In this document: positions 24,978 to 61,121 of the stretch, piece after piece
How positions within the stretch are numbered: the stretch's first letter is position 1
Layout of the letters: each line of letters begins with the position of its first letter
The notes under the pieces: model-generated
What the model saw: only the letters and a program-made list of their open reading frames with translations
Told to the model about the DNA's origin: nothing
Database searches by the model: none
Origin: a virus
DNA length: 64,000 nucleotides
Virus record (IMG/VR): IMGVR_UViG_3300015360_000025
Strand: one strand, 5' to 3'
Made by a program: the position numbers and the translations under genes

Positions 24978-25817
24978 TTGAAGGATCGAATCTCATTCAG
25001 TGAGTGGATGCTATACCGCAACGGCTGTCAATGGCGGTGGAAGCTCGATTACCTGGACAAGCTCGGTGGTAAGGCGTACGGTGTTTACATGGACTTTGGT
25101 ACTTGCGTACACGGAGCCATCGAAAAGCATAGGACCAGAAAGGACCCGATCTCTTTGAATGAAGCCAAGGATTTCTTCGAGAAGAGTTTCAAGGATACAT
25201 TTGAGAAGAACAAGACAAAGTATCGAGAGCGTGAACGGACGCTAGATATCGAAGATTTCGTCCTGGCTGGCAAACGGATCTTGGATCACTTGGTCCAGTG
25301 CATCGAGTTGACATCGGCCGATGTCGTGTACAACGAGCACGAACTCCTACTTCCCATGGATAGATCTGACTCCATTCAGATCAACTTCAAGGGATTCATC
25401 GACATGGTCATCAAGACCAAGGACAAGCTTGGGAAGACGATCCTGTACATCGTCGACTTCAAGACGTGCTCCTGGGGGTGGGACGGTGACAAGCGACAAG
25501 ATCGTGATCTTCATTCCCAACTTTTTCTGTATAAACACTTCCTCTGCAAGAAGTTCAACTTGGATCCTAAACAGGTCAGGACAGCCTTCGTGTTGCTTAA
25601 GCGTCGTCCTTCCAAGAATACTTGTGCCGTGGAGTTCTTCCCCGTCAGCGCAGGTCCTGTCAGTGTCCAGCGGGCACTTGACAACCTGAATTCAGACCTA
25701 ACTGATATGAACGAGCGGTTGGAGACGAATACTCTTGCGAAGAATCGTAAGCAATGTACTAACGAGTACGGAGACGTTTGTCCCTACTACAAAACCGAAC
25801 ACTGCCATGGTGAATGA
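24978..25817 (+). CDS. PD-(D/E)XK (RecB-like) nuclease
   Basis: FGTCVH, E...KGFIDMV...IVDFKT, QLFLY; Cys cluster C...C...CPYY..C. Confidence 0.85.
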   Translation: MKDRISFSEWMLYRNGCQWRWKLDYLDKLGGKAYGVYMDFGTCVHGAIEKHRTRKDPISLNEAKDFFEKSFKDTFEKNKTKYRERERTLDIEDFVLAGKRILDHLVQCIELTSADVVYNEHELLLPMDRSDSIQINFKGFIDMVIKTKDKLGKTILYIVDFKTCSWGWDGDKRQDRDLHSQLFLYKHFLCKKFNLDPKQVRTAFVLLKRRPSKNTCAVEFFPVSAGPVSVQRALDNLNSDLTDMNERLETNTLAKNRKQCTNEYGDVCPYYKTEHCHGE

Positions 25818-27147
25818 GATGACAGAGAAGAAAAAGATCATGATGTTGTGTGACCACCCTCTCGTCCCAAGCGGTGTTGGTACCCAGGCGCGGTACCTGA
25901 TAGAAGGTCTGCTCGCCACTGGCAAGTACAAGTTCCACGTCTTTGGTGGCGCCATGAAACACCCTGACTACAGGGAACAGAGGGTATCCCCTGACAAGTT
26001 CGGTGATGATGGTTGGATCATCGTCCCTGTCGATGGATACGGGGACAAAGAACGACTCCGTGCAGCCATTGCGAAGGAGAAGCCTGATCTACTTCTTCTC
26101 TTCACTGATCCGCGACAGTTTGTGTGGGTCTGGGAGATGGAGGATGAGATCCGTCCCATCTGCCCGATCGCTTACTGGCATGTCTGGGACAACGATCCCA
26201 CACCGAAGTACAACAAGGTCTTCTATGATTCGACAGACCTCTTGGTCCCCCTGTCTCTCAAGACGTACGGGATCCTTCAAGACATGAAACACCCAAACTT
26301 CAAGTACATTCCGCACGCCGTCTCATCAGAGCTCTTCAAACCTCTGGACGAGGTGGAATGTCAGAAGTTCAAGCGTGGTCGTTTTGGTCCTCACGCCGAT
26401 AAGAAATTCATCGTCTTCTGGAACAATCGCAATGCCAGGCGGAAGATGACAGGAGACGTGGTCGCCGTTTTCGCCAAGTTTGCCGAAAAGGTCGGTAAGG
26501 AGAATGTGGCCCTCGCGATGCACACAGTCGTGAATGATCAGGAAGGACAAAACATCGTAGAGGTTGCAAGGTGCTTTGACATCGAAAAGAATCTGATTAT
26601 CTCAGAGGAACGCTGTCCACCAGATGTTTTGAATGGTTTCTACAATGCATGTGATATCACCATGAACATTGCCAATAACGAGGGGTTTGGCCTCTCGACT
26701 CTTGAATCCCTGATGGCCGGGTCTCCAGTGTTGCTCCAGATGACGGGTGGTCTCCAGTTCCAGATTGGAAACTGGTGGGACGGAGTGAAGGACTTCACCG
26801 ATCAGGACAAGCTGACTGAGATGGCTAAGAGGTTGTACAAGTCAAAGGGTGCCAACTTCTATGGTATTCCAGTCTTTCCTGCCTCACGATCTTGTACTGG
26901 ATCACAACCGATTCCGTATATTTACGACGACCGTGTCTCGCACGAAGATGTTGTCAAGGGACTTATCCAACTTTACGAGATGGGACGTGAAAAACGACGT
27001 GAACTTGGGAAGGCTGGCAGTGTTTGGGCGGAGAAAACTTTCAACATGGCTAAGATGATCTCTGATTGGGACAGCGTGTTGTCGGAAGAGATAAGTAGGT
27101 CAGAGGCACGCAAGACCCGGTCGTCACTTCGGGTCGTCGGAATCTGA
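25735..27147 (+). CDS. GT-B (GT4-like) glycosyltransferase
   Basis: SGVGTQ, NRNARRK, EGFGLSTLESLMAG; true start probably about 25807. Confidence 0.9.
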   Translation: MRRIVSNVLTSTETFVPTTKPNTAMVNEMTEKKKIMMLCDHPLVPSGVGTQARYLIEGLLATGKYKFHVFGGAMKHPDYREQRVSPDKFGDDGWIIVPVDGYGDKERLRAAIAKEKPDLLLLFTDPRQFVWVWEMEDEIRPICPIAYWHVWDNDPTPKYNKVFYDSTDLLVPLSLKTYGILQDMKHPNFKYIPHAVSSELFKPLDEVECQKFKRGRFGPHADKKFIVFWNNRNARRKMTGDVVAVFAKFAEKVGKENVALAMHTVVNDQEGQNIVEVARCFDIEKNLIISEERCPPDVLNGFYNACDITMNIANNEGFGLSTLESLMAGSPVLLQMTGGLQFQIGNWWDGVKDFTDQDKLTEMAKRLYKSKGANFYGIPVFPASRSCTGSQPIPYIYDDRVSHEDVVKGLIQLYEMGREKRRELGKAGSVWAEKTFNMAKMISDWDSVLSEEISRSEARKTRSSLRVVGI

Positions 27148-27156
27148 GGATAACAT

Positions 27157-28098
27157 ATGCCAGGAATTGCTGTCTTAGGTGGTGCGGGTTTCATCGGATC
27201 AAACCTCGTCGATGAACTGCTCGTTCAGGGTCACGAGGTGACTGTACTCGACAACTTCTCAGAAGGCAGACTGGAGAATCTCGAGAGGTGGAGGGGAAAT
27301 CCGAAGCTTGAGGTCGTAAGGGGCGACATCAGGGAGTTCTCCCAGGTTCGACGGGCTGTTGACCACAAGGAGTGGGTCTTCCACCTTGCTGCCATGAGTC
27401 GCATTCAACCATCCATCACGGATCCACTGCTAGCTTTCAGCCAGAACGTCATGGGAACAGCGAATGTACTGGAAGCGTGTAGGCAGGGCGGAGTGAAGCG
27501 GGTCGTCTACTCCGCGTCCTCCTCAGCTTATGGTCTAAAAAATCCACTCCCAAATAGGGAGGACATGCCGACAGATTGTCTCAACCCGTACTCACTTTCC
27601 AAGAAGAACGGTGAAGAGCTAATGGACCTGTACGGAAAATTGTACGGTCTTTCTACAGTCTCTCTCAGGTACTTCAACGTTTACGGACCTCGTCACCAGG
27701 AAGAGGGAAATTACGCGACAGTGATTGCGATCTTCCGTCGACAGAAGAGGATGGGACAGAAGTTGACCATTGTTGGAGACGGCGAACAACGTCGTGACTT
27801 CACGTTCGTCGGTGATGTTGTCCGGGCCAACATGCTAGCGGCCATGAATAGGGACGTCACTGGGATCGTGAATATAGGTACGTGTCAGAACCACAGTATC
27901 AACGATCTTGCCAAGATGATTGGTGGCGAGACGACCTTTATCCCGGCACGACAGGCAGAGGCAAGGGAAACGTTGGCCGATAACACCCGAGCTCGTACGG
28001 TCCTGGGATGGACGCCACAAGTAGAACTGGCCAGTGGATTGGCTGTAGTTGAAGCCTACGAGAAAAGAAATCCACCAGGACTGATCACGCTCGTCTGA
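27157..28098 (+). CDS. NAD-dependent nucleotide-sugar epimerase/dehydratase
   Basis: GGAGFIG, SSSAYG, YSLSK, RYFNVYGP. Confidence 0.95.
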   Translation: MPGIAVLGGAGFIGSNLVDELLVQGHEVTVLDNFSEGRLENLERWRGNPKLEVVRGDIREFSQVRRAVDHKEWVFHLAAMSRIQPSITDPLLAFSQNVMGTANVLEACRQGGVKRVVYSASSSAYGLKNPLPNREDMPTDCLNPYSLSKKNGEELMDLYGKLYGLSTVSLRYFNVYGPRHQEEGNYATVIAIFRRQKRMGQKLTIVGDGEQRRDFTFVGDVVRANMLAAMNRDVTGIVNIGTCQNHSINDLAKMIGGETTFIPARQAEARETLADNTRARTVLGWTPQVELASGLAVVEAYEKRNPPGLITLV

Positions 28099-28109
28099 CT
28101 GGAGAGACA

Positions 28110-31100
28110 ATGCAGAAGCTTCTTTTTTGGGGACCCGTACTCACTGCTTCTGGGTACGGTGAACATGCTCGTCAACTCCTTCGATGTATTCTTGACTCCG
28201 GGAAGTTCGATGTCAGTGTATGTGGAGTGAAGTGGGGTCACTGCTCCTTTCTGACTGGTGGCGACGAATTCATCGACAAGATTCGGGCGTTGGTACAGAA
28301 GTACGAGGTTGAGAAATCGAGTAACCAACAATATGATGTCTCAATACAGGTAACGATCCCGAATGAGTTCCAGAAGCTTGGACGTGTAAACATCGGTGTC
28401 ACAGCCGGTATCGAGGTCGATCGGGTCTCTCCCGAATGGATCAAGAAGGCCAACGAAGTCTGTGACCTGGTTGTTGTTCCATCCAAGCACTCAGCCCAGA
28501 CGTTTGGGAGCGTTATCTACAAGGACCAGAGTGGCCAGGAGCTACGGCTCCAGAAACCGTTATTGATCGCCGCCGAAGGGTTTGACGCAGCTATTTTCAA
28601 TACCACGCCGGACGAGAACGACGGACTGGGAGTGGATCTCGAAGCCGACTTCAATTTTCTCTCAGTCGGACTTGGTCTTGACAAGGGGATGGAGGAGGAT
28701 CGCAAAAATATCAGCGGTCTCGTCAAGTGGTTCTGCCAGACGTTCGCAGGCGATGAGCGTGTCGGTCTTGTTCTCAAGACGAACATGGTTAACAGCTCTC
28801 TCATGGATTTCGAGACGGCCAAGAGTCGGATCTCTCAGATTAAGGCATCCACCGGTTGTGGACCTTTTCCGAGGATCAAACTCATTCACGGGCGTCTTTC
28901 CAAGAAGGAATTGGCAAATCTGTACCGTCATCCGAAGGTCAAGGCGTACGTTACCACGACCCACGGTGAAGGCTTTGGTCTCCCGACGATTGAGGCTGCA
29001 GCCTGTGGTCTTCCTGTGATCGCCACCAATTGGTCTGGTCACCTTGACTTTCTCCACTCTCCTGATGGAAAGAGAAAGTTCGTCCCTCTTGAATTCGACC
29101 TGAAGGAGATCCCTAAATCTTCCGTCTGGCCGGGAGTGATGGAACAGGGAACCCGGTGGGCTTGCGTCAAGGAAGAAGATTTCCAGAATAAGATGAAGAA
29201 GGTATTTCTTAGCATCGAGAAGCCTAAGGAATGGGCTACAGAGCTCGCAGCTCAATTGGCTGAGTCTCACGACGAGAGAAAGCTAGGAATTCAGTTCGTT
29301 TCCGCGATTGAACAGTTCCTGCGGGAGACTTCGAATGGTCCTAACTCCCAAAAGGTGAACGACCCGTGTGAGGTCAAGAGACGTCTACGAGAGCAGCTTC
29401 AGATTCCAGATGGAAAGAAGACACTCCTGTTCACGATGCCGATGTCGGCTGGCGACGTTTTCATGGCGACCGCAGTGGTCGATTCTCTCAACAAGAAGTT
29501 TCCAGAGCATCTGATCCTATTCGCCACTGATCCGAAGTATGCTTCCATCCTGAAGGACAACCTGAAGATCTTCAAGATCATTCACTTTGATAATTGGATG
29601 ACGAACATCACCTTCTGTGAATCTGTGTTCGATGAAGTCTACACTCCGAACCTCGCGATCCAAACAGTTCAATCAAACTGGGTGCATGGTGGAAAGGGAC
29701 GTCTACTCGGTTATGAGATGGCCGCCCAGTGTCAGGTCGAGTTCGGCGACTACTTCATCAAGACTGAGCCGCTCTTCGAACCACTTCCGACGGAGAAGTA
29801 CGTCGTCTTCCACCCGGGATCTGGAAAGGGTCAGTGGGAAGCTCGGAACTATCGTCACTGGCGGAAGGTCATCAGGAATCTCAAGAAGTCCGTCGACATC
29901 ACGATTGTCCAGGTCGGTCTCGAGGACGATCCTGCCTACGAGGGGTGCGTCGACCTGAGAGGTAAGACGACATACAACCAGTTAGCTATGGTGGTCCAGA
30001 ACGCATCGTGCGTCCTCGGGATCGACTCTGTAACCATGCACATGGCTGCAGCCTTCGGAACTCCCCACGTGGCCCTGTTTGGAAGTTCGTACTCTACCTC
30101 GACAGGGCCGGTCATTAAGATCAAGAAAGACAAGCCGTGGAGTTGCCTGCTCGAGACGACTAATCGGATGGGATGTGAGAAGGCATGCTACAAGTACCAG
30201 TGTGTTGTAGATCGTGAAAGCCCGTGTGTCAACGAGATCGATCCCAAGATGGTCGTCTCCTACGCGCTAGAAATGCTTTCACAGAACGTGACTCAGCTAT
30301 CACCTGAGGCTGTGAAGTGGGACGACTGCCATCCGAAGATCGCCGGATACACCCACGTCTTCAATGCGGAGACCCACGGGTTCCCATATGTCGAATCGAT
30401 CAGTTCTATGTTGGGGTTCTGCGACGAGGTGATCGTTGTCGATGGCGGATCGACCGATGGGACTCTCGAGAAGATCAAGGCGCTCGGAAACGACAAGATC
30501 AAGATCTTCGACCGGGTATGGGACTGGAACGAGCCGGGCATGGACGGTATGCAGAAGGCGTTCGGCCGGGCCATGGCCACAGTCGGTCCCGACGACTTCC
30601 TCTGGCAGCAGGATGCTGACGAGGTGGTCCACGAGGAAGACTACGAGAAGGTCCGGAAGATGGCCGAGAGATTCCCAACGGGAGTCGACCTGGTCCACCT
30701 GCCGGTCGTGGAGCTCTGGGGAGTCAAGGACAACGTCCGGATCGATAGACACTCGTGGAAGTGGCGCATGAGCCGGAATAACTTCAGAGTTACACACGGC
30801 ATCAACGGCCCAGCGCGAGTGTTCGACGAGAAGACTGGACGGACCTACGCCAAGAAAGGTCAGAGCGACGGTTGTGAATACGTCGATATCATGACCAACG
30901 ACCACATTCCGCACAAGGGCTTTTATTCTCAGGAGCTCGAGAATCTTCGGCAGACGAACCCAGATGAGTACGGGAAAAACATGAACCGGATCTTCAAGGA
31001 AATGCCGTCCATCTTCCACTACTCATGGGCCAACCTGCCACGGAAGATCAGAAATTTCAAGGCATTCTGGAACAAGTGCTGGTCCAACCTGTACAATGAT

Positions 31101-31367
31101 CCGAACCCAATTGATCGCTTCCCTGATGTACAAACGGATGATGACGTGATAAAAAAGGCGAAGGAGCTCTTCACCCGCGGTGGTGAGCATGGACAAGCCA
31201 AGACATTCCTCCTCGAGAGGACCAATCCCTCCTCGATGACCGAATGGCTAAATAGGATGGGGAAGGAGTACGAAAATGCCGCTCGTGGACCTATTCATAA
31301 CGACGAAGGATCGGCCGCATCTTCTCAGGAAGTCCTTGGAATCCCTGGTCCAGTGCACGGACGGTAA
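28110..31367 (+). CDS. Tri-domain glycosyltransferase (GT4 + GT9 + GT2)
   Basis: EGFGLPTIEAAACG; SAGDVFMAT...HPGSG...GIDSVTMHMAAAFGTP; DEVIVVDGGSTDGT...DADE. Confidence 0.9.
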   Translation: MQKLLFWGPVLTASGYGEHARQLLRCILDSGKFDVSVCGVKWGHCSFLTGGDEFIDKIRALVQKYEVEKSSNQQYDVSIQVTIPNEFQKLGRVNIGVTAGIEVDRVSPEWIKKANEVCDLVVVPSKHSAQTFGSVIYKDQSGQELRLQKPLLIAAEGFDAAIFNTTPDENDGLGVDLEADFNFLSVGLGLDKGMEEDRKNISGLVKWFCQTFAGDERVGLVLKTNMVNSSLMDFETAKSRISQIKASTGCGPFPRIKLIHGRLSKKELANLYRHPKVKAYVTTTHGEGFGLPTIEAAACGLPVIATNWSGHLDFLHSPDGKRKFVPLEFDLKEIPKSSVWPGVMEQGTRWACVKEEDFQNKMKKVFLSIEKPKEWATELAAQLAESHDERKLGIQFVSAIEQFLRETSNGPNSQKVNDPCEVKRRLREQLQIPDGKKTLLFTMPMSAGDVFMATAVVDSLNKKFPEHLILFATDPKYASILKDNLKIFKIIHFDNWMTNITFCESVFDEVYTPNLAIQTVQSNWVHGGKGRLLGYEMAAQCQVEFGDYFIKTEPLFEPLPTEKYVVFHPGSGKGQWEARNYRHWRKVIRNLKKSVDITIVQVGLEDDPAYEGCVDLRGKTTYNQLAMVVQNASCVLGIDSVTMHMAAAFGTPHVALFGSSYSTSTGPVIKIKKDKPWSCLLETTNRMGCEKACYKYQCVVDRESPCVNEIDPKMVVSYALEMLSQNVTQLSPEAVKWDDCHPKIAGYTHVFNAETHGFPYVESISSMLGFCDEVIVVDGGSTDGTLEKIKALGNDKIKIFDRVWDWNEPGMDGMQKAFGRAMATVGPDDFLWQQDADEVVHEEDYEKVRKMAERFPTGVDLVHLPVVELWGVKDNVRIDRHSWKWRMSRNNFRVTHGINGPARVFDEKTGRTYAKKGQSDGCEYVDIMTNDHIPHKGFYSQELENLRQTNPDEYGKNMNRIFKEMPSIFHYSWANLPRKIRNFKAFWNKCWSNLYNDPNPIDRFPDVQTDDDVIKKAKELFTRGGEHGQAKTFLLERTNPSSMTEWLNRMGKEYENAARGPIHNDEGSAASSQEVLGIPGPVHGR

Positions 31368-32007
31368 TCTATTCCGTCTGACGATCGTCGCTGACGGTCA
31401 TCACAACGCGACCAGCGAAGTCCTCAGAGAATTTGAACAGCTGTGGGATCATAAGATTGAGCATGCCATCTGCCAAGGTCTTGGACCCTCGATCAATCAG
31501 GCCCTCGCATATATCAATGCAAATAAACCATGGGACATAACTCCGTCACCTCTGACCGTTTACGTTCAGGATGATGTGCAGTACTCCAGGGGATGGCTGG
31601 AGAAACTTTCCCAGAAGTTTCTCCAGCTCGAACGACCGTTGAACCTCGGATTTGCTTCGGGGATCGAATGCATTGAGCATCCTGTCAAGAAAGACATCGG
31701 TAACGGGATGGTTACCAAAGATTGGATCAGGGCCACTTGTATGATGGCCCGTCACGATTATTGGATGTCCATGTGGCCAATTCCCAGGATCGATCCTGAG
31801 ACGGGGCGAGAGCGCGGTCGTCCTCACGATGGCCTGGGAAGTTCGGTCGATTGGTGGTTCATCAGAAATGCTGTCAACTCTGTTTGTAAGACTAGTCGGA
31901 CGAATCTCGTCATTCCAGGTTTACTCCAACATATTGGTTACAAGGAATCGACGTGGTTGAAGAGAGATCTCCCCGAGTCTAATTCTGACAAGGAGAAGAT
32001 GAAATGA
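31276..32007 (+). CDS. GT2-like glycosyltransferase
   Basis: ITTKDRP.LL..SL, IVADG, VQDD; AAGGAG SD. Confidence 0.75.
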   Translation: MPLVDLFITTKDRPHLLRKSLESLVQCTDGNLFRLTIVADGHHNATSEVLREFEQLWDHKIEHAICQGLGPSINQALAYINANKPWDITPSPLTVYVQDDVQYSRGWLEKLSQKFLQLERPLNLGFASGIECIEHPVKKDIGNGMVTKDWIRATCMMARHDYWMSMWPIPRIDPETGRERGRPHDGLGSSVDWWFIRNAVNSVCKTSRTNLVIPGLLQHIGYKESTWLKRDLPESNSDKEKMK

Positions 32008-33035
32008 GACAGATCATTTTGATCTCGTATACTTCTCTGAATGCGGGTGGTGGCGTTCCACGTTGGAACCGTGACTTTGTTGCAGGATTTCCTGGAACTA
32101 AACACTATTCATGGGATGACATCCCGAAAGCTCCATTGGGCGTCCAGAACGAATGGGATGGAGCCTTTGCTCTCAACATGTGGTTGCATCTGACAAAGAA
32201 GGTGTCAAAGGACGACATCATCATCTCTGATGGCTTTTGGGGAGAACGACTGAGCGACCTGGGTTACAACGTCATTTCGATCGCTCATGGCATCTGGAGC
32301 CACCTGACCAAAGACGATGTAGACGCTGGGAAGGATCCTGAGTTTCCTTTCCACAATGCCGTCCAGGTAAAGCACCGTCATGATCATCTGGCCCGTGGTG
32401 GGAAGATCGTCGCTGTCTCCAGGTTCATCCAGGAGCAGATGAAGCTCCAGTGGGGTTTTGAATCGAGTGTGATCAACAACGCCATCGATCTCGACAAGTG
32501 GAAAAGGCCGGTAGCTCGGATGCCGAACTGGACAGACTCGCGTCTGGTCATCCACGGGGTCACGACTGCCAACAAGGGTTTCGATCACATCGAAGCTGTT
32601 AAGAAGGCTCTACCAAACGACGACGTCTGGCTTCTGGATGAGGCTGCCGAAAAGCTCGAACTATCAAAGGTCGACGCCCTCGCTAATGCCGATCTTGTCG
32701 TCCAACCATCTGCGTACGAGGGCAACAGCTATTTTGTACTAGAGACTATGGCATGCGACGTCCCTATCGTAGCATACAACGTTGGTCTTCTTCACTCTAT
32801 CTCAGTGATAGCAAAGGAGAATGGAATCGAAGCGTGTGTTGGGGCGATCATTGACAGGAAGTATCGTCGACCAGAAGAAACGGCAAAAGTTGCTAGCTTT
32901 ATCCTGGACTCCGTCTGTCGTGATCGGAGTACGTATAACCCGAGGCAGGTATCCGAGCTGTTCTCGGTGAAAAGATTCCACGAGCAGTGGCGAGAGTACC
33001 TGGAGGACTATGAGCGTAATATTACGAGTCGATGA
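32004..33035 (+). CDS. GT4-like glycosyltransferase
   Basis: GGGV, AVSRF, NNAID, KGFD, PSAYEG...LETMACDVP. Confidence 0.88.
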   Translation: MRQIILISYTSLNAGGGVPRWNRDFVAGFPGTKHYSWDDIPKAPLGVQNEWDGAFALNMWLHLTKKVSKDDIIISDGFWGERLSDLGYNVISIAHGIWSHLTKDDVDAGKDPEFPFHNAVQVKHRHDHLARGGKIVAVSRFIQEQMKLQWGFESSVINNAIDLDKWKRPVARMPNWTDSRLVIHGVTTANKGFDHIEAVKKALPNDDVWLLDEAAEKLELSKVDALANADLVVQPSAYEGNSYFVLETMACDVPIVAYNVGLLHSISVIAKENGIEACVGAIIDRKYRRPEETAKVASFILDSVCRDRSTYNPRQVSELFSVKRFHEQWREYLEDYERNITSR

Positions 33036-34694: not shown

Positions 34695-34695
34695 A

Positions 34696-34965
34696 ATGAA
34701 GACTGTACATGTCATCGGCAACAGCCATGCGTGGTACTTTGCGGGAGCAGAGGTCGGAGTAGACGTCGAAGAAATTCTCCAGAAAGACGATCCTCGACGA
34801 CATCCGTTGATGATGTCTCTGGGAAGTGAGATAGTCGACGCTCGTGGATTTATCAAAGAAGAGTACCAGAAATATCCTGGATCACGTGTTGATGTTCACG
34901 CGGCTCCTGCTAAGGTACAATTAATCGTTCTTGAAAAACTAAAGGTGATACTTGGACAAAGCTGA
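34696..34965 (+). CDS. Short hypothetical protein (SGNH-like N-terminus, possibly truncated)
   Basis: VHVIGNSH start only. Confidence 0.45.
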   Translation: MKTVHVIGNSHAWYFAGAEVGVDVEEILQKDDPRRHPLMMSLGSEIVDARGFIKEEYQKYPGSRVDVHAAPAKVQLIVLEKLKVILGQS

Positions 34966-39476: not shown

Positions 39477-39835
39477 CTAAGATTCCAATGGGTGGGCAGT
39501 TTCGTATGCTCCGAGGATGGGGGTATGAAACGTGGATTGAGAATCTCCCAGAGTACTGTGGAAAGATTCTGCATGTCTACAAGGGACTGCGCGGGTCCCT
39601 ACACTTTCATATGAATAAGATGGAAACTATGTACCTCCAGTCTGGAAAGGTTCAGCTTCGTTTTGTAGACCCGGAGAAGGGTACCGACTATACGATCGAC
39701 CTGAATCCTGGTGATTCGATTCTGATACCACGCGGGCAGGTTCATCAGATCATTGGAATTGAAGAGAGTGATCTCTTTGAGTTTAGCACCGTGCATGAAG
39801 AGTCAGACTCTCATCGAGTTCAGAAGGGGGACTGA
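39464..39835 (+). CDS. Cupin sugar(-phosphate) isomerase-like protein
   Basis: WG.E.W, SLHFH..K.ET, H, FEFST.H..SDS.R. Confidence 0.85.
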   Translation: MAQLTKIPMGGQFRMLRGWGYETWIENLPEYCGKILHVYKGLRGSLHFHMNKMETMYLQSGKVQLRFVDPEKGTDYTIDLNPGDSILIPRGQVHQIIGIEESDLFEFSTVHEESDSHRVQKGD

Positions 39836-40722
39836 TGCGTTGGAACATTGTCGGGGCATTCATCCGGAATAATCCCTTTGGGACAGAGATCGCTTTTCGG
39901 AAGGGTCTCGAGAGGATCGGAGAGACTGTGACGGCGGTGGACCCAGGTTACCCCAACCAACAGTTTGATGAAGCTCCAGACGTCACCTTGGTGTTCAAGT
40001 GGGTGGACACGGGACCGTATCGCGATAAAATCGTCTCTCTACCTGGGAAAAAGGTCCTCTACCAGGTTGATGATCTCCGTTTTCCGCACATTAAACAGAT
40101 GATGCTCGAGATGAGATCGGTGTGTAACAATGCGCTGACTTTCGATCAAGATGGAGCAAACCTTGCTCTTGAGTACGGGTACGATTCGGGGCAACGTCTA
40201 TTGTTGACTGCCGATAATCTCCTTTACCGTCATATCACCGGAATGCAGAAGGATATCGATGTTAGTTTTGTTGGAAGTCTGTCGAATGGTCCGAATCATG
40301 CCAGCCGCATGAGGATGATTCAACTTGTTAAGGGAATCCCTGGCCTGCGAGTAGTGATCGCCAGCGAGCTCTTCGACATCGGAAAACTCTGTGAGATCTA
40401 CAATCGTTCCAAGGTTGTCCTGAATCACGCGACAGATGTTGGTCAACCTTTCGGTCATGGGTTTGGGTATCAGTGTCGACACTTCGAAGCCGGGTTCACC
40501 AAGACTTGCATCCTTTCGAACAAGATTGACAACGACGAGACATTGGGATTCATACCGTTCTTTTCGAATGAGTTGGAGCTCGTTGAACGTCTTAAGACAC
40601 TTCTTAACGAACAGAAGCGCAGGGAGTTATATGCACAGTTGACTTACGATCAGCTCTATAAATCACACCTTCCAGAACACCGCGCCAAAGAGATGATCGA
40701 GTTTGTACGGAGTGTCCGGTGA
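39835..40722 (+). CDS. CgeB-like GT-B glycosyltransferase
   Basis: DIDVSFVGS...R, YNRSKVVLNH, RHFE. Confidence 0.75.
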   Translation: MRWNIVGAFIRNNPFGTEIAFRKGLERIGETVTAVDPGYPNQQFDEAPDVTLVFKWVDTGPYRDKIVSLPGKKVLYQVDDLRFPHIKQMMLEMRSVCNNALTFDQDGANLALEYGYDSGQRLLLTADNLLYRHITGMQKDIDVSFVGSLSNGPNHASRMRMIQLVKGIPGLRVVIASELFDIGKLCEIYNRSKVVLNHATDVGQPFGHGFGYQCRHFEAGFTKTCILSNKIDNDETLGFIPFFSNELELVERLKTLLNEQKRRELYAQLTYDQLYKSHLPEHRAKEMIEFVRSVR

Positions 40723-41312
40723 AGATCAATCTTGGGTGCGGGCCCGATTTGAAAGATGGCCACGTGAACGTCGACTTCAGGGATCTTCCAGGAGTGACGA
40801 AAGTAGATCTCTCCATATTTCCGTGGCCATGGGCTGACGATTCCGCTGATCAGATCTTGATGTTGGATTTTCTGGAACACTTCCCGTACAGGAAGACGAC
40901 TACTATCCTTCGTGAGTGTTGGCGTGTCCTGAAGATGGGTGGGAACCTCGAAGTCCAGGTTCCAGACCTCGAACATTGCGCGCGCGCTGCAGCAATGACA
41001 GGACCATTCCTGTGTAACAGGTGTGGATGGCAGTATCCGATGCACGACCTTCGGGCAGACTTCTTCATCTGCAAGCAGTGTAAGCAACCGTGGACAGAGT
41101 GTGCCCAAGCTGCCATCCACCGTTTGTACGGTGGTCAGGACTACGAAGGAAATTGGCATCACACAGCCTTCACGACTCTCCAGCTGAACAGGTTGTTGCA
41201 GGGGCACGGGTTCGAAGACATCCGCGAGCTGGAGCACGAGCACCAGTACAAGAATTGGAATTTCAAGTTTTCTGCCACAAAGATGAAAGACCTGTGGGGT
41301 GATGAACCGTGA
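40719..41312 (+). CDS. Methyltransferase type 11 with Zn-ribbon insert
   Basis: INLGCG, NVD, LEHF, RVLK.GG...VPD; CxxC...CxxC insert. Confidence 0.85.
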   Translation: MKINLGCGPDLKDGHVNVDFRDLPGVTKVDLSIFPWPWADDSADQILMLDFLEHFPYRKTTTILRECWRVLKMGGNLEVQVPDLEHCARAAAMTGPFLCNRCGWQYPMHDLRADFFICKQCKQPWTECAQAAIHRLYGGQDYEGNWHHTAFTTLQLNRLLQGHGFEDIRELEHEHQYKNWNFKFSATKMKDLWGDEP

Positions 41313-42268
41313 ACGACTGGAAAGGAAAGAACGTCCTTGTCACAGGGGCCGCCGGTTTCATCGGTGGCTGCGTAGCTCGTGAGCTTCTTGATCAAGAGGC
41401 TATTGTGACGTGTCTCATCAGGACGAAGGGAAAGAATCCGAATCTCCTGGGGGCGAAGATATTCGAAGGGGATGTGGCGGACTACGCCTTGATGTGTGAG
41501 ATCATCTCTTCGGGAGAAATTGAGTACGTCTTTCATCTGGCGGCAAACGCCATCGTCAGGGTCGGGGCTCGGGATCCGATGAACACATACCGAATCAACG
41601 TGATGGGTACGGTCGCCCTCCTTGAGGCAGTCCGTACGGTTGGCCGATGCAAGAAGGTAGTCGTGGCTTCGAGTGACAAAGCCTACGGTGATCACGATAT
41701 CCTTCCGTACAAGGAGGACATGGCACTCCAACCGAAGAACACGTACGATACTTCCAAGGCTTGCGCAGACATGATCGCGCGCTCGTATGCCCACAACTAC
41801 GATCTTCCGATCGTCGTCACACGTTGCAGCAACGTCTATGGTCCTCGGGATCCTAATATGTCGAGGATCATCCCCAACACGATCAATCGAATTCTGGAAG
41901 GCAAGAAGCCGCAGCTTTATTCGGACGTCAGCGTCATGGAGAGAGAGTTTATCTTCATCGACGACGTGGTCGTTGCCAACTTGGCCCTCGCTCTATCTGG
42001 TCCAGAGACAAACGGGGAGGCATTCAACGTCGGTAGGAACCACGCTCACATGGTTTCGACCGTGGTCGAACAGATCTCCAAGATGATGGGCTTCGAAGAC
42101 GGAGTCGAGATCGTTCCTCGCGAGCCCTCCTTCAAGGAAATCCAGAAGCAGTACATCAGCGCTCGAAAGCTCGAAGAGGCGACCGAATGGAGCGCGCGGG
42201 TCCAACTCATCGACGGTCTGAGGAAGACGATCGACTGGTATAAGGTATTCGGGAGAAGTGACCGATGA
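41309..42268 (+). CDS. NAD-dependent nucleotide-sugar dehydratase/epimerase
   Basis: GAAGFIG, SSDKAYG, YDTSK, RCSNVYGP. Confidence 0.93.
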   Translation: MNDWKGKNVLVTGAAGFIGGCVARELLDQEAIVTCLIRTKGKNPNLLGAKIFEGDVADYALMCEIISSGEIEYVFHLAANAIVRVGARDPMNTYRINVMGTVALLEAVRTVGRCKKVVVASSDKAYGDHDILPYKEDMALQPKNTYDTSKACADMIARSYAHNYDLPIVVTRCSNVYGPRDPNMSRIIPNTINRILEGKKPQLYSDVSVMEREFIFIDDVVVANLALALSGPETNGEAFNVGRNHAHMVSTVVEQISKMMGFEDGVEIVPREPSFKEIQKQYISARKLEEATEWSARVQLIDGLRKTIDWYKVFGRSDR

Positions 42269-43302
42269 GAGTTGCCTTCGTCGGGGTCAAGCGTAAGTAC
42301 CAAGAGTTGGCGCCTGAGTACAAAGACTTCTTCAATCAGTATCATCTGGAGCTTCCGTACTACTACGCTCGACATGGACAGAATCATGTCACGATCACGA
42401 CCGTCGATCATGATTCTCCTCCCATCCGTTTTGCCCGAGATTATTCCGATTTCCTGGAATGCCAGACGGAAGAGAAGTACAAGATCGAAGGTCGTAGATA
42501 CGATGTCGTCGTGCACTGGCGTAAGTGGTTCCCCGAGTTACGTAAAGAAGGTACCATCAATCTTCTCAACTGTCAGGATCACTCGTTCAGTCAAGAATGG
42601 AAAGACAGTGTCCGTCAAGCGATGAACGCTGGTCAGCTGCATGGAATACTCTGTTTTCCGACCTGGCACAAGCAGAATATCCACGAAGAGACTGGCATCC
42701 CGCTCGATAGGCTTTTCGATGGAGTCACCCTGGGAGTAGACACTGAAGTTTATAAACCAGCTCTCGTTAAAGATCCATTCCAGATGCTGTGGGCATCCGA
42801 TCCTGGGCGCGGTCTAACTCAAGCGATGTGTCTCGCTGCCGAACTCTTCCAGAGAGACAAGCGGTTTAGACTTCACGTCTGTGTTCCAGACTACGTCAAG
42901 ATGAACTCTTCTCCTTTCAACCACCCAGCGATCGCCTGGCATGGGTGCGTCCCGAATGGTCCGAAGCTCTGGGAGCTCTTCAACAGTTCCGGGATCCTCC
43001 CGTACACTTCTTGCTTCAAAGAGCCGTCTTCCCGGGCCCATCGGCAGGCCCAGGCGGCAGGGTGCCTGGTTCTCTACCCTCCTGGTATGGGAACACCCTC
43101 CGAACTCATCCAGCATGAACGGACGGGCATCGTGGAGCCAATCGGTCAATGGACGGAACGGATTCGAAACTTTGCCGTCCACAGAGAACGTACTGAGATC
43201 GGACCGCAGGCCCGTGAGTTTGCGATCACGGAAAACTGGGAAGTGCAGGCGCAGAACTTCAATCGTCTCATCGAAAAGATCAAGGGAGAACAAAATGATT
43301 GA
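42265..43302 (+). CDS. GT4-like glycosyltransferase
   Basis: WASDPGRGL, FKEPS...AQAAG. Confidence 0.75.
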   Translation: MRVAFVGVKRKYQELAPEYKDFFNQYHLELPYYYARHGQNHVTITTVDHDSPPIRFARDYSDFLECQTEEKYKIEGRRYDVVVHWRKWFPELRKEGTINLLNCQDHSFSQEWKDSVRQAMNAGQLHGILCFPTWHKQNIHEETGIPLDRLFDGVTLGVDTEVYKPALVKDPFQMLWASDPGRGLTQAMCLAAELFQRDKRFRLHVCVPDYVKMNSSPFNHPAIAWHGCVPNGPKLWELFNSSGILPYTSCFKEPSSRAHRQAQAAGCLVLYPPGMGTPSELIQHERTGIVEPIGQWTERIRNFAVHRERTEIGPQAREFAITENWEVQAQNFNRLIEKIKGEQND

Positions 43303-43931
43303 CATCAACGCGAAATCATATTTATCGTGTGAAGACGCGTTATGCGCTGTACCTTATTCTTGATCCATGTTCTGGTATGCCGCGATACGTTGGAATGACA
43401 ACGCGCGGGTTTCATCGGAGAACGAGTGAACATCTAAAAGCAATTCACGACAAGCGATTTAAGACACATCTTTATTTCTGGCTGAGAGTTCTTCATAGCA
43501 AAGGATTGAAACCTTTCTTCGAACTTGTCCGTTGCTTTGAGGAAAGTACTCGAGGGGAAGAAGCTCTTTGTGACGCAGAGATTGATTTTATTTCTCTTCG
43601 TTCTGCGGGAGCGGACTTAACAAATACTGCTCGTGGTGGAAAGGGTAAATCGAGTAACGGTAGAGTGCCTTGGAATAAAGGAAAGTCGGGTGTGTCAGCA
43701 GAGACAAGTGAAAAGATGCGGTCTGAAAAAGTTGGGAAAGTCTCCCCGCGGAAAGGTGTCATTCTCTCTTCGGAAACAAAAGAAAAATTGAGAGTTTCTC
43801 ATCTCGGAAAAGCTGCTTCACCAGAGACAAAAGAAAAGATGAGTTTGACCCATAGGTTAATTTGGAAAAGGAGAAAAAATGCCAGTAGATATCAACTCGA
43901 CGGACTTCATGCAGACATTCAAACTGGCTGA
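43299..43931 (+). CDS. GIY-YIG homing endonuclease with NUMOD3-like repeats
   Basis: LYLI...RYVG..R..EH...E...LTN..GG; PWNKGK, S.ETKEK repeats. Confidence 0.85.
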   Translation: MTSTRNHIYRVKTRYALYLILDPCSGMPRYVGMTTRGFHRRTSEHLKAIHDKRFKTHLYFWLRVLHSKGLKPFFELVRCFEESTRGEEALCDAEIDFISLRSAGADLTNTARGGKGKSSNGRVPWNKGKSGVSAETSEKMRSEKVGKVSPRKGVILSSETKEKLRVSHLGKAASPETKEKMSLTHRLIWKRRKNASRYQLDGLHADIQTG

Positions 43932-44802
43932 CGCCACTGTCGGGGTGGTCGGTCATGGATTCGTGGGACAGGCGGTCGCAGAATTCTTCAAGGGAACGTG
44001 CGGAAACATCGTCATCAACGACAAGGCGAAACCGGAACTGGCGACCCTGAAGGAGGTCGTGACCCGGTCCGAACTGATCTTCGTCTGCGTCCCGACCCCG
44101 ATGCGGAAGGACGGATCATGCTACACAGGGTTCGTGGAAGAGGTGATCGCGAACATCAAGACCACCGCCCAGGAGATCAAGAGGAATTTCGATTCCTTCG
44201 TGGTCGTGGTCAAGAGCACGGTCTACCCGGGATTCATCGAAGATATGCAGAGCAAGCATCTCCCGATGAGGCTGACCTTCTCTCCCGAGTTCATTACGGA
44301 GAAGAATAGCGTCGAAGACTTCAAGAAAACAAACAGGATCATCGTAGGTGGGGATGAGGACGACGCGATGATTGTCCTGAAATACTTTCACGATGTTGAT
44401 CCAAAAAGGATCGAGGATGGTCGACGCGTCCTTCTTCAGTGCAATCCAACAACGGCCGAGATGGTAAAACTCTATGCCAACGGGATTTTGACCGCGAAGG
44501 TCATTTTCTCGAACGAGGTCTACCAGATCTGTCAGAAGCTTGGAGTTGACTTCGAAGAGGTCAGGGCAATATCAGTCCTGGATACTCGAATCGGAACGGG
44601 GCATACTCTTGTCCCTGGCCCAGACGGCCAACTGGGATACGGTGGTCACTGCTTCCCCAAAGACATCCAGAACCTCAGAGCTACAGCTCGGGTGTGCGAA
44701 GTTCCGGAGAAGCTATTTACCGCGATGATCGATCGCAATGAAGAGCTGAGAGAGAAGAAGGACTGGCTAGATATGAAAGAACGGGCTGTCACGGAGAACT
44801 GA
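43879..44802 (+). CDS. UDP-glucose/GDP-mannose dehydrogenase family (no C-terminal domain)
   Basis: VVGHGFVG, CVPTP, KST, PEF, GGHCFPKD. Confidence 0.92.
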   Translation: MPVDINSTDFMQTFKLADATVGVVGHGFVGQAVAEFFKGTCGNIVINDKAKPELATLKEVVTRSELIFVCVPTPMRKDGSCYTGFVEEVIANIKTTAQEIKRNFDSFVVVVKSTVYPGFIEDMQSKHLPMRLTFSPEFITEKNSVEDFKKTNRIIVGGDEDDAMIVLKYFHDVDPKRIEDGRRVLLQCNPTTAEMVKLYANGILTAKVIFSNEVYQICQKLGVDFEEVRAISVLDTRIGTGHTLVPGPDGQLGYGGHCFPKDIQNLRATARVCEVPEKLFTAMIDRNEELREKKDWLDMKERAVTEN

Positions 44803-45134
44803 TGCCTACGCTTGTCATGGACATGGATGGGACAATCTGCGAGCAGATGCATGGCGATGGGTATTTTATCGCCAGACCCATTCAATTCGTGATCGATAAA
44901 ATGAGATCATACAAACTCAAGGGATGGGATATTGTAATCCACACCGCCCGTGGCATGGGACGTTATGATGGAAACATCGCTCGCATCGAGTTTGAGTTTC
45001 GTTACAAGACGGAGAAGTGGTTACGAGATCACGGCGTCCCATATGATAAGCTGATCTTCGGGAAGCCTGCCGGAGACATCTACGTGGATGACAAGGGGAT
45101 AGTACCTGATGACTTTGCGACCAGAGACGCTTGA
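44802..45134 (+). CDS. HAD-family phosphatase (capsule-biosynthesis EcbF-like)
   Basis: DMDGT, TAR, GKP..D.YVDDK. Confidence 0.88.
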   Translation: MPTLVMDMDGTICEQMHGDGYFIARPIQFVIDKMRSYKLKGWDIVIHTARGMGRYDGNIARIEFEFRYKTEKWLRDHGVPYDKLIFGKPAGDIYVDDKGIVPDDFATRDA

Positions 45135-45609
45135 AAGTGAATCCTACAAAGAGCTTTGCGAATCGATTCGTGCTGAGGGTCGCAAGAAATATGGTTCCCA
45201 GGGGTACTCTCGAGTGGTCTTCGCTAATGGCGTCTTTGATCTTCTTCATTTGGGTCACCTTTCTCTCCTGAACGAGTGTCGAATCTTGGCTGGTCCAAAT
45301 GGCGCCGTTGTCGTCGGAGTGAATTCTGATGCGTCTGTGAAGAGGATCAAAGGTCCCAACAGACCCATCCTGGACGAGGTCACCCGGTGTTCCACTTTGA
45401 TCTTCATGAAGCCGGTGGATCACGTCTTGACATTCGATGAAGACACCCCACTCGAACTGGTGGAAGTTCTCCGTCCTGACGTTATCGTCAAGGGATCTGA
45501 ATACAGAAACAAGAAGGTCGTCGGTTCACACTTGGCTGTCGTGACGTACGTCGATAGTAAGGAAGGCATCTCGACGACCCAGCTGATCGAGAGGATCCGC
45601 AATGGATGA
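45109..45609 (+). CDS. Nucleotidyltransferase, HldE/RfaE domain II-like
   Basis: NGVFDLLHLGH, VGVNSD.SVKRIKG..RP, KGSEY, STT. Confidence 0.93.
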   Translation: MTLRPETLESESYKELCESIRAEGRKKYGSQGYSRVVFANGVFDLLHLGHLSLLNECRILAGPNGAVVVGVNSDASVKRIKGPNRPILDEVTRCSTLIFMKPVDHVLTFDEDTPLELVEVLRPDVIVKGSEYRNKKVVGSHLAVVTYVDSKEGISTTQLIERIRNG

Positions 45610-46516
45610 ACCAAAAAAGATACTCGTGGTTGGTGATGTGATGATCGACAAGTACATCTTCGCCATGACTTCTCGTCAAGCTCCAGAGGCGCCAATACCG
45701 GTGTGGGACGAGGTGGCATATGAGCTCCGTCTCGGTGGAGCGGCCAACGTCGCTAACAACCTGAAGGCTCTGGGCGGGGATGAGGTCGAAGTCTATCTGG
45801 CGGGTATCGTTGGTTTGATCGACAAGAAGATGATCTCCCGGGCAGGCATCAACACAATCTTGTGCGCCGGCAATGAGTCGATGTACAAGACCAGGTACAT
45901 CGACTCACACAGCAAGAAGCACATGTTCCGTGTCGACAATATTCGGACATTCTCTCCAGAGTCTAAGACACATTTTCTCCGTTGCCTACAACACTTTCTC
46001 AGGGGTCACGTGTTCGATGCGGTCATCTTCTCCGACTACGATAAAGAGACCATCAATCTTGACGTGATGGAGATCGTCATCCCCACTTCCAAATTGACTG
46101 TTGTAGACTCGAAGCGGACAGATCTTTCCATGTACAAGGGTGCGCAATTGCTCAAGATCAATGAATACGAGTATGCGACACAACTTTCTCGTGGTCCGTA
46201 TCTCAACGTCGAGAGTCTGTTCGACTACGTTGTCGTAACCCATGGCTCAAAGGGCGCTGAGCTACGGCAGCATGAAGTGACAAAGAGTGATGAGAGACGA
46301 TACATGGTCCATAGCGAAAACTTCGCCGTCGACCCTGTGAATGTTCAAGACGTGACTGGATGTGGTGACACCCACACGGCAGCCATGACGTTTTCTTTAT
46401 TGAAAAACCAGGACGTCCGCTTGGCTGTTCGATTCGCCAATGCTTGCTCTAGGAATGTCGTACAGAAGTTTGGCACCAGCGTAAGTGATGTCAGCTTGGC
46501 TAGCATTGGTGTATAA
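45602..46516 (+). CDS. PfkB sugar kinase, HldE/RfaE domain I-like (second copy)
   Basis: GDVMIDKY, PEAPIPV, LGGAANVA.NL, SDYDK, DVTGCGDT. Confidence 0.92.
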   Translation: MDEPKKILVVGDVMIDKYIFAMTSRQAPEAPIPVWDEVAYELRLGGAANVANNLKALGGDEVEVYLAGIVGLIDKKMISRAGINTILCAGNESMYKTRYIDSHSKKHMFRVDNIRTFSPESKTHFLRCLQHFLRGHVFDAVIFSDYDKETINLDVMEIVIPTSKLTVVDSKRTDLSMYKGAQLLKINEYEYATQLSRGPYLNVESLFDYVVVTHGSKGAELRQHEVTKSDERRYMVHSENFAVDPVNVQDVTGCGDTHTAAMTFSLLKNQDVRLAVRFANACSRNVVQKFGTSVSDVSLASIGV

Positions 46517-61106: not shown

Positions 61107-61121
61107 ACCTACTTACTACAA

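Follow-up and report, generated by a model that had tools for sequence, protein, structure and literature searches.

A glycosyltransferase-rich nucleotide-sugar gene cluster in an uncultured T4-like phage and its possible role in the O-glycosylation of virion proteins

A 64,000-nucleotide stretch of viral DNA (IMG/VR record IMGVR_UViG_3300015360_000025; hereafter the window) carries at positions 25735-46516 a cluster of 23 open reading frames (ORFs), tightly packed and all co-oriented, whose products resemble enzymes of nucleotide-sugar synthesis and glycan assembly. The source is an uncultured T4-like phage of about 187 kb, the same sequence being present on a 187,020-bp contig in the protein database, and among the T4-like traits of the window are a late sigma factor of the gp55 type, baseplate proteins of the gp25 and gp6 types, and fibre proteins. 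Among isolates, Mel-JY01 (190 kb), a phage of Microcystis, and the immuto group of Flavobacterium phages (160 kb) come nearest, with amino-acid identities of about 33-37%, and a megablast search of the 21-kb cluster against isolate phages gave no match. Statements on whole genomes, such as the absence of genes, rest on the genomes of its relatives.

Families were assigned to the cluster ORFs with Pfam and NCBIfam. The matches to equivalog models (HldE domains I and II, HldD, AraD and WaaC/WaaF/WaaQ) all lie below the curated NCBI cut-offs and the assignments are therefore made at the level of the family only. The cluster encodes ten glycosyltransferase (GT) domains, two methyltransferases, a DUF2334 protein, two short-chain dehydrogenase/reductase (SDR) proteins, a truncated nucleoside diphosphate (NDP)-sugar dehydrogenase, an HldE-type set of kinase, phosphatase and nucleotidyltransferase, a cupin, and a block comprising an AraD-like enzyme, RpiB, a second kinase and a transaldolase. 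The glycan-related genes are as follows.

25804-27147 (longest ORF from 25735), + strand: GT470, a soluble GT4-type GT-B glycosyltransferase of 447 aa (Pfam Glycos_transf_1)
27157-28098, + strand: SDR NDP-sugar epimerase, GalE/TviC/HldD-like (Pfam Epimerase, E 2e-59; NCBIfam matches all below cut-offs; homologues in 20 loci)
28110-31367, + strand: three-domain transferase of 1085 aa with GT400 (residues ~1-405), GT9 (~440-725) and GT2 (~750-1000) domains (Pfam Glycos_transf_1, Glyco_transf_9 at 49.2 bits against a cut-off of 22, and Glycos_transf_2)
31276-32007, + strand: GT2 (GT-A) glycosyltransferase (Pfam Glycos_transf_2; conserved in seven loci of the sub-lineage described below)
32004-33035, + strand: GT4 glycosyltransferase (Pfam Glyco_trans_1_4 and Glycos_transf_1)
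33010-33660, + strand: DUF2334 protein, deacetylase-like (Pfam E 1.6e-8)
33657-34694, + strand: first CgeB-type (Glyco_trans_1_2) GT (Pfam E 8e-11)
34952-35755, + strand: S-adenosylmethionine (SAM)-dependent methyltransferase (Methyltransf_23), candidate sugar O-methylase (Pfam E 3e-15)
35877-36803, + strand: free-standing GT9 with the heptosyltransferase fold (Pfam Glyco_transf_9, PF01075, 42.4 bits against a cut-off of 22)
36796-37437, + strand: AraD-like class II aldolase/epimerase (Pfam Aldolase_II, E 4e-36; best NCBIfam match L-ribulose-5-phosphate 4-epimerase, below cut-off)
37385-37870, + strand: RpiB-type sugar-phosphate isomerase (NF004051, 146 bits against a cut-off of 135)
37867-38808, + strand: second PfkB kinase, HldE-domain-I-like (best NCBIfam match TIGR02198, 118 bits against a cut-off of 345)
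38805-39476, + strand: TalC/FSA-type transaldolase, candidate supplier of sedoheptulose-7-phosphate (Pfam TAL_FSA, E 7e-41)
39464-39835, + strand: metal-binding cupin of 123 aa, candidate aldose-ketose isomerase (invariant H47, H49, E54 and H94)
39835-40722, + strand: second CgeB-type (Glyco_trans_1_2) GT (Pfam E 2e-10)
40719-41312, + strand: second SAM-dependent methyltransferase (Pfam Methyltransf_11)
41309-42268, + strand: SDR resembling NDP-sugar 4,6-dehydratases (Pfam Epimerase, E 6e-53; TIGR01181, 166 bits against a cut-off of 365)
42265-43302, + strand: GT-B/GT4-type GT of 345 aa (no Pfam match; ESM Atlas feature score 0.99)
43879-44802, + strand: two-domain NDP-sugar dehydrogenase-like protein (Pfam UDPG_MGDP_dh_N and central domain; no C-terminal UDP-binding domain)
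44802-45134, + strand: BcbF/EcbF-type HAD phosphatase, candidate substitute for GmhB (TIGR01689, 88 bits against a cut-off of 162)
45109-45609, + strand: HldE-domain-II-type sugar-1-phosphate nucleotidyltransferase (best match TIGR02199, 135 bits against a cut-off of 181.5)
45602-46516, + strand: main PfkB kinase, HldE-domain-I-like (best NCBIfam match TIGR02198, 171 bits against a cut-off of 345)

An earlier, sequence-only reading had described a co-oriented block of sugar genes of about 21 kb, and all of the gene classes that it listed were recovered by the family searches; its assignment of the block to a heptose/pentose nucleotide-sugar pathway is upheld at the family level. It had counted about nine GT domains in this multi-GT block, a number that rises to ten with the inclusion of the ORF at 42265-43302, which matches GT1/GT4 clusters of the ESM Atlas with TM scores of 0.81-0.85 and is conserved in the relatives G001, G002 and L082. 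What it termed a UDP-sugar dehydrogenase is indeed dehydrogenase-like but lacks the C-terminal UDP-binding domain; 38 of the 69 related loci retain the protein with the same length, and it thus represents a distinct two-domain subfamily. The cluster proteins lack membrane segments, as had been noted, the Kyte-Doolittle value of 1.62 not being exceeded in any 19-residue window. The reported lack of a flippase, polymerase or ligase is also borne out, since none is present in the cluster and the families PF01943 (Wzx), PF02397 (WbaP), PF00953 (WecA) and PF04932 (Wzy/WaaL) are absent from the genomes of five relatives (three of them 91-100% complete by CheckV and two isolates). The proximity to virion genes holds for this phage, in which the baseplate genes begin about 3.8 kb downstream of the cluster (gp25-like, 50295-50690; gp6-like, 50703-52556), but it is not a conserved trait, as the two are about 75 kb apart in Mel-JY01.

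A scan of IMG/VR with GT470 gave 69 loci (38-69% identity, 65 invariant columns), onto which all of the window proteins were mapped. A lineage-wide backbone emerged, in the order PD-(D/E)XK nuclease, GT470, a GT of about 400 aa (GT400), about 0.4 kb of small ORFs and gp55, which is present in the 69 viral contigs as well as in Mel-JY01, with a cyanobacterial host, and immuto, with a Flavobacterium host; elsewhere in the isolate collection it was absent. The two anchors of this backbone in the window are the following.

24978-25817, + strand: PD-(D/E)XK nuclease, upstream anchor and not a glycan gene (Pfam PDDEXK_1, E 4e-13)
47279-47953, + strand: gp55-like late sigma factor, downstream anchor (phrog_234)

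In 62 of 71 loci a homologue of the nuclease immediately precedes GT470, and gp55 follows the GT pair within about 1.5 kb in 60 loci. GT400 is a separate gene in about 60 relatives and corresponds to the N-terminal 400 or so residues of the 1085-aa protein, the full-length GT400-GT9-GT2 fusion being confined to L003-L008, L068, L082 and L084. Most relatives carry the GT pair alone, often with the two-domain dehydrogenase and at least one SDR upstream of the nuclease, while in the sub-lineage of the window, made up of the same loci that carry the fusion, the second GT is separated from gp55 by an insertion of about 19 kb of sugar genes. Two other contigs, one of 202,787 bp from farmland soil and one of 13.6 kb, show the complete gene order, including the run of AraD-like, RpiB, PfkB, transaldolase and cupin genes, with an amino-acid identity of about 46%; the cluster is thus a selected and widespread unit, not one that arose by chance. 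The near-complete relatives G001 and G002 lack only the AraD-like/RpiB/second-kinase/transaldolase block and the second SDR, yet keep the cupin, the nucleotidyltransferase and the kinase, which marks the precursor-supply block as a removable add-on.

Different sugar modules occupy the same backbone in other phages: WecE-type aminotransferases, an acetyltransferase and further GTs in immuto; GT-A and GT-B genes and a methyltransferase in Mel-JY01; and in locus L070 a compact, contiguous cupin-HAD-nucleotidyltransferase-kinase block beside an SDR. Such variation of modules on a constant backbone is typical of surface glycans that are subject to diversifying selection. The retention of the GT pair across phages of different host phyla argues for an acceptor specified by the phage, and, with GT400 fused to GT9 and GT2 domains, heptose transfer is linked to the acceptor of the conserved pair. 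The heptose module is an add-on of the sub-lineage, and it is the lineage-wide GT pair, not the heptosyltransferases, that most likely touches the acceptor, GT470 being the candidate acceptor-priming enzyme throughout the lineage.

The GT470 homologue of Mel-JY01 (L001, 13489-14980) is annotated as two ORFs of 191 and 303 aa, reflecting a frameshift, a sequencing error or a genuine split. The same phage carries a 1226-aa 'methyltransferase FkbM' and a 639-aa 'cytidylyltransferase-like' protein beside structural and terminase genes (L103, 4750-13162), which may form a second glycan-related site. The gap between the cluster and gp55 in the window (46516-47269) contains three small ORFs: an acidic one, a Zn-ribbon-like one (Cys-x2-Cys ... 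Cys-x2-Cys) and a third of 146 aa, with a homologue in G001, whose membrane segment (Kyte-Doolittle 2.48) is the only strong one in the region.

A second line of evidence comes from the virion proteins, in which a short tripeptide tag, [ST]-G-S, was found to be over-represented. In the window the tag is carried by the following proteins.

52740-63998, + strand: five baseplate-distal/fibre proteins, candidate acceptors (Pfam LamG_3 in one, Kelch in one, no family in three)

These five proteins contain 44 [ST]-G-S sites, with 5-17 per ORF against 0.6-1.7 expected. The relaxed form [ST]-[GA]-S occurs 56 times against 9.7 +/- 3.1 in composition-preserving shuffles; the counts for TGS and SGS are 25 (2.4 expected, z about 15) and 19 (3.6 expected), whereas the permuted tripeptides GSS, SSG, [GA]S[ST] and TGT (0 observed) are at or below expectation in the same proteins. 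Among the approximately 60 plus-strand ORFs of the window, the tag is essentially confined to these five tail proteins, every other ORF having 0-1 sites; by gene class, the tail genes of the window contain 36 against 4.4 expected and the non-virion genes 3 against 5.6.

Similar excesses were observed in the relatives. Genome-wide in G002, the head and tail region has 101 sites against 24.9 expected and the remainder 16 against 15.6, the enriched ORFs including the major head protein, the sheath and a 1402-aa protein. The tail region of G006, a 369-kb relative with the minimal GT pair only, has 45 against 12; Mel-JY01 has 45 against 6.4 and immuto 61 against 13.7. The tag is enriched about 4-8-fold in the virion proteins, and in these only, of all five phages examined that carry both conserved GTs. 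In four of the five tail-gene sets TGS and SGS head the list of over-represented tripeptides, and in immuto SGS ranks fourth. No excess was found in T4 (structural genes 1 against 7.0, long-fibre genes 6 against 4.5), the Xanthomonas jumbo phage XacN1 (9 against 5.7) was counted as not enriched, and the two tripeptides do not stand out in T4, XacN1 or LR756508, although neither LR756508, with its GT470 homologue, nor XacN1, whose baseplate genes have a GT9 gene as neighbour, is a perfect negative control. The tag carriers span unrelated folds (LamG, Kelch beta-propeller, sheath and others), and the codons of the tag are diverse, with both serine codon families in use, so that selection acts on the protein. 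Residues flanking the tag are hydrophobic at -2, -1 and +3. When orthologues of about 40-50% identity are compared, most of the sites are not shared, while their density is maintained.

Some further features of these regions were recorded. In XacN1 a 3313-aa baseplate-associated protein is immediately followed by the annotated GT9 gene (L129, 214560-215228), and a carbamoyltransferase is encoded close by. The tail-spike region of immuto (L126, 96965-100775) has a repeat-derived Y-S-H-A-E motif, HAE occurring 10 times against 0.2 expected. In the window, the gaps between tail genes at 52556-52740 and 54080-54468 contain short ORFs with GIY-YIG-like N-termini, which are probably remnants of homing endonucleases. 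The sugar cluster itself contains one ORF of this type.

43299-43931, + strand: NUMOD3 (GIY-YIG-like) homing endonuclease (Pfam NUMOD3), a selfish insertion and not a pathway gene

It sits between the GT4-like and the dehydrogenase-like genes, overlaps each by a few codons and is absent from this position in G001, G002 and L082.

Among the precursor enzymes, the cupin is the best-conserved protein of the block (74 homologues, 52-74% identity) and its HxH...E...H metal site is invariant. It is contiguous with the HAD, nucleotidyltransferase and kinase genes in L070 and is retained in G001 and G002. Its similarity to D-lyxose, mannose-6-phosphate and glucose-6-phosphate isomerases is weak; in a profile search of PDB, generic metal cupins such as oxalate decarboxylases dominate, with sugar isomerases at E 1e-4 to 1e-3, and the isomerase role is therefore suggested mainly by gene context, that is, the adjacency in L070. 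A SIS-domain sedoheptulose-7-phosphate isomerase (GmhA) was not found, as none of the 23 cluster ORFs matches a SIS family, and the cupin is the sole candidate in the block for the GmhA-type step. The HAD phosphatase matched no GmhB model. The nucleotidyltransferase has a G-I-S-T-T motif and lacks Arg among the ten residues that precede it, which, on one reading of the register of the rule summarised in PMC11461863, hints at ADP rather than CDP or UDP. The predicted kinase, HAD phosphatase and nucleotidyltransferase, taken together with the two GT9 domains, are the signature of a route to beta-anomeric NDP-heptose. The second kinase has 351 homologues in the protein database, many of them on contigs that also encode a GT9, and a pattern scan of IMG/VR for its close relatives found none. 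RB69-type phages make UDP-arabinofuranose by the same logic of isomerase, anomeric kinase, distal phosphatase and nucleotidyltransferase (PMC13326640), and by this analogy the second kinase, which lies beside RpiB, may activate a pentose rather than a second heptose.

Structural models were examined for two of the transferases. The AlphaFold2 model of GT470 (mean predicted local distance difference test score, pLDDT, 91.8) has as its best PDB match a GT of chlorovirus NY-2A (3oy2), followed by MshA, BshA and sucrose-phosphate synthase (SPS). Among viral proteins, the GTs of chloroviruses, giant viruses and archaeal viruses are structurally closest to it, chlorovirus-type entries leading the BFVD list, and the alpha- and beta-GTs of T4 are not among its top 50 PDB or BFVD matches. 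A fold search of GT470 was also considered as a means of naming its acceptor and was rejected as uninformative. The free-standing GT9 has 239 homologues, mostly on contigs of about 180-207 kb. Both GT9 domains exceed the gathering threshold of PF01075, and the model of the free-standing protein (pLDDT 91.8) has a WaaC-like GT-B fold, matching WaaC (2h1h) in Foldseek with E 1e-13 and a TM score of 0.70, with WaaF also matched; a profile of 38 sequences finds WaaF (E 3e-10) and a Veillonella GT9. Equivalog status as WaaC, WaaF or WaaQ was not reached (19-52 bits against cut-offs of 135-569), and no sequence match was found for the N-terminal acceptor domain of the phage GT9. The analogy drawn earlier with the heptosyltransferases TibC and AAH (BAHT family) did not survive this comparison: TibC ranks only 27th in Foldseek (TM 0.47) and gives no profile match at E <=10, so the free-standing phage GT9 is not a member of the BAHT family.

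From the gene content, the absence of membrane segments, the conserved backbone, the domain fusion and the tag enrichment, we infer that the block is an autonomous, entirely soluble glycan factory which most likely O-glycosylates the exposed virion proteins of the phage in the host cytoplasm, primed by the conserved GT pair, a reading that we hold with moderate confidence, its chances being evenly balanced. The transaldolase, RpiB and the AraD-like enzyme would boost the supply of sedoheptulose-7-phosphate or a related ketose phosphate; the metal cupin would perform the aldose-ketose isomerisation usually carried out by GmhA; an HldE-type PfkB kinase would phosphorylate C1, the BcbF-type HAD phosphatase would strip the distal phosphate and the HldE-type nucleotidyltransferase would yield an NDP-heptose, probably ADP-heptose. 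The SDRs, together with the dehydrogenase-like protein, would supply further modified NDP-sugars. The first sugars would be attached by GT470 and the GT400 domain of the 1085-aa protein to Ser/Thr within exposed hydrophobic-hydrophobic-[ST]-G-S-hydrophobic segments of proteins of the baseplate, the fibres, the sheath and perhaps the head; six additional GTs, along with the GT9 and GT2 domains of the fusion, would lengthen the glycan, and the two methyltransferases and the DUF2334 protein would tailor it.

More tentatively, and with somewhat less than even confidence, the same reading may be extended to a widespread lineage of T4-like environmental phages (160-370 kb, with hosts that include cyanobacteria, Flavobacterium and soil bacteria), which would share a general cytoplasmic system of particle O-glycosylation consisting of a sequon, a priming pair and hypervariable, O-antigen-like extension modules that generate virion 'serotypes'. 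The extension set of the window sub-lineage would then be a GmhA-independent, cupin-based NDP-heptose pathway with fused heptosyltransferases.

The inference of a virion-protein acceptor, already made in the sequence-only reading, gains support from the virion-restricted tag in this phage and four relatives; the argument by which it had been reached, from the absence of membrane segments to a cytoplasmic acceptor, does not hold. WaaC, WaaF, WaaG and most O-antigen GTs are soluble or peripheral proteins that act on lipid-anchored acceptors, which makes the lack of membrane segments a weak argument. Several other observations weigh against O-glycosylation of the virion. The hydrophobic-turn-hydrophobic context of the tag could be a lineage-specific structural (beta-)turn. 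The strict motif is inconsistent among the major capsid protein orthologues (0-4 sites against about 0.65 expected), and LR756508 has a GT470 homologue with no adjacent GT400 and only a 1.9-fold tag excess in its baseplate region. Since the tag-positive phages all belong to one lineage, the link between the tag and the GT pair is phylogenetically a single observation. The free-standing GT9 is of the WaaC/WaaF-like, that is lipopolysaccharide (LPS), type, and the fold of GT470 cannot name the acceptor, as its matches to MshA, BshA and SPS are the same as those of proven DNA arabinosyltransferases (PMC13326640). Lastly, the T4-type late promoter TATAAATA has two matches in the window, both on the minus strand and none ahead of the cluster. 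Scans for sigma-70 promoters and terminators gave no more matches than in shuffled sequence, and a shared motif was not found in the intergenic regions.

The alternative that survives best, although we consider it unlikely, is a remodelling of the host envelope, in which lipid-linked acceptors of the host (lipid A-core or undecaprenyl-PP-sugar) would be modified by the soluble GTs on the inner side of the membrane, and host flippases and ligases would export the altered glycan, for example to block the adsorption of progeny or competing phages. Soluble GTs are normal in LPS and O-antigen assembly, the GT9 fold and profile are nearest to the LPS heptosyltransferases WaaC and WaaF, O-antigen chains can be capped by methyltransferases, and annotations of comparable cyanophage clusters assume modification of the host surface (PMC12801897). 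However, the priming GT pair is common to phages of cyanobacteria, Flavobacterium and soil hosts, whose envelope acceptors differ; neither the cluster nor the genomes of the five relatives encode a phage initiating transferase, flippase, polymerase or ligase; and the restriction of the [ST]-G-S tag to virion proteins is left unexplained.

Hypermodification of the phage DNA, in which the GT pair and some of the added GTs would glycosylate 5-hydroxymethyl- or 5-hydroxy-cytosine with heptose as one of the sugars, is in our estimate distinctly unlikely. Phage clusters that place mono- or di-heptose on 5-hydroxymethylcytosine (5hmC) are known (bioRxiv 10.1101/2023.12.21.572611), and both the top structural matches of GT470 and the isomerase/kinase/phosphatase/nucleotidyltransferase logic are shared with phage DNA arabinosylation and its UDP-arabinose route (PMC13326640). 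A thymidylate-synthase-family gene is present in divergent form in eight of the ten relatives searched and as a strong match in immuto, Mel-JY01 having none; a tblastn search with the thymidylate-synthase-like protein of G002 did not separate hydroxymethylase from thymidylate synthase. The T4 alpha-gt gene likewise lies between a recombination nuclease gene (gene 47) and gene 55 (L080, 36624-40157), with a neighbour order that, relative to transcription, is opposite to that of the GT pair, and this likeness could be due to a shared plastic region or to coincidence. Against a DNA acceptor, a set of ten GT domains, two methyltransferases and one deacetylase-like protein is far larger than the known DNA glycans, of up to three sugars, would require; no cluster GT matches the T4 families T4-Gluco-transf (PF09198) or AGT (PF11440) of Pfam; Mel-JY01 keeps the GT pair and further GTs without a thymidylate-synthase-family gene; and the virion tag is not explained. 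In addition, G002 carries a separate DNA-modification module about 90 kb away (L081, 116000-135000), with a thymidylate-synthase-like protein, phrog_652, a DNA polymerase, RGP (plant-type, UDP-arabinopyranose mutase family), a deoxynucleoside monophosphate (dNMP)-kinase-like protein and its own 445-aa T4 beta-GT-like enzyme. The absence of thymidylate synthase was also tried as an argument to exclude a DNA acceptor altogether and was set aside as weak, since only Mel-JY01 of the ten lacks the gene.

Very unlikely is the remaining reading, that the cluster makes a soluble or storage glycoconjugate or mere nucleotide-heptoses for metabolism or signalling, the [ST]-G-S tag being an unrelated structural habit of beta-rich virion proteins: viral NDP-heptose enzymes have been reported without a known acceptor (PMC11461863), cyanophages carry HldE-type genes without GT9 genes and the tag flanks are hydrophobic as in beta-turns, but ten transferase domains, fused or packed in a conserved operon-like block, imply a defined polymeric product on a defined acceptor, the permuted tripeptides are not enriched and the beta-rich fibres of T4 have no excess of the tag.

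HldE-type genes and large GT clusters have already been annotated in T4-like isolates, and virion glycosylation is known in actinobacteriophages; in the body of literature searched, no description of the backbone, the GT fusion, the cupin substitution or the [ST]-G-S sequon was found. To our knowledge, actinobacteriophages and giant viruses of eukaryotes are so far the only phages or viruses for which chemical evidence demonstrates virion glycosylation by enzymes of their own. If O-glycosylation of the virion is correct, a large and abundant group of T4-like phages of soil and water would coat its particles with self-made, clade-specific glycans at a simple sequon, which would bear on adsorption, particle stability and escape from recognition by hosts or grazers. 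It would also provide a compact, soluble toolkit for sequon-directed O-glycosylation, with an all-soluble NDP-heptose route that needs no GmhA, and a testable explanation for the many unexplained 'LPS-like' clusters of large phages. The cultured relatives Mel-JY01 (Microcystis) and immuto (Flavobacterium) make the question directly testable.

Among the known systems, the 'LPS / cell-wall' clusters of the cyanomyoviruses P-SSM2, S-SCSM1 and S-SCSM2R, the last with 13 GTs (PMC12801897), are likewise found in T4-like phages and combine many GTs with NDP-sugar epimerases and HldE-type genes, and HldE-like genes were observed in the isolates S-CAM1, S-T4 and P-SSM2; these clusters differ in their GT families and gene order and have no GT9. 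The bacterial pathway to ADP-L-glycero-beta-D-manno-heptose is resembled in a kinase and a nucleotidyltransferase whose best matches, below the cut-offs, are HldE domains I and II, in SDRs that match HldD at the family level and in two GT9 domains, one of them WaaC-like in fold. Unlike it, the phage set has no SIS-type GmhA, a phosphatase of the BcbF and not the GmhB type, separate genes for kinase and nucleotidyltransferase, two kinases and no lipid A context. With TibC/AAH it shares a GT9-related GT-B fold, in a system where the Ser residues of a cytoplasm-made protein are heptosylated in the cytoplasm.

Phage DNA hypermodification systems offer a further parallel in their soluble MshA/BshA-like GT-B enzymes, their isomerase/kinase/HAD phosphatase/nucleotidyltransferase route and the neighbours of T4 alpha-gt. 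Arabinosyl-5-hydroxycytosine is found in the DNA of RB69 and DLP3 (PMC13326640), and hexose, N-acetylhexosamine (HexNAc), heptose and Kdo on 5hmC in phage DNA (bioRxiv 10.1101/2023.12.21.572611); the present block is far larger than these systems and includes methyltransferases. The autonomous glycosylation of capsids or fibrils in chloroviruses (PBCV-1, NY-2A) and giant viruses, the subject of PMC9614988, PMC5408694 and PMC10117803, likewise involves virus-encoded soluble multi-domain GT/methyltransferase proteins (such as A064R), rare-sugar pathways and sets of sugars that are specific to each clade. These systems differ in belonging to eukaryotic viruses and, in PBCV-1, in N-linkage at atypical sequons, and sequence identity to them is only 15-23%. 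We know of no chlorovirus or giant-virus glycan that has heptose as a component.

A functional parallel to the O-glycosylation proposed here is offered by the mycobacteriophages Che8, Corndog and Myrna, which O-glycosylate their virions (Freeman et al. 2023, as summarised in PMC12619734). Phage-encoded soluble GTs glycosylate the capsid and tail proteins of the phage in the host cytoplasm there, as would be the case here. That system, in the terms of the summary, involves few GTs, siphoviruses of actinobacteria and C-terminal attachment regions, and is not known to be homologous to the present one. The present system differs from it in its ten GT domains, its own nucleotide-sugar pathways, its setting in a T4-like myovirus and its dispersed tripeptide tag.

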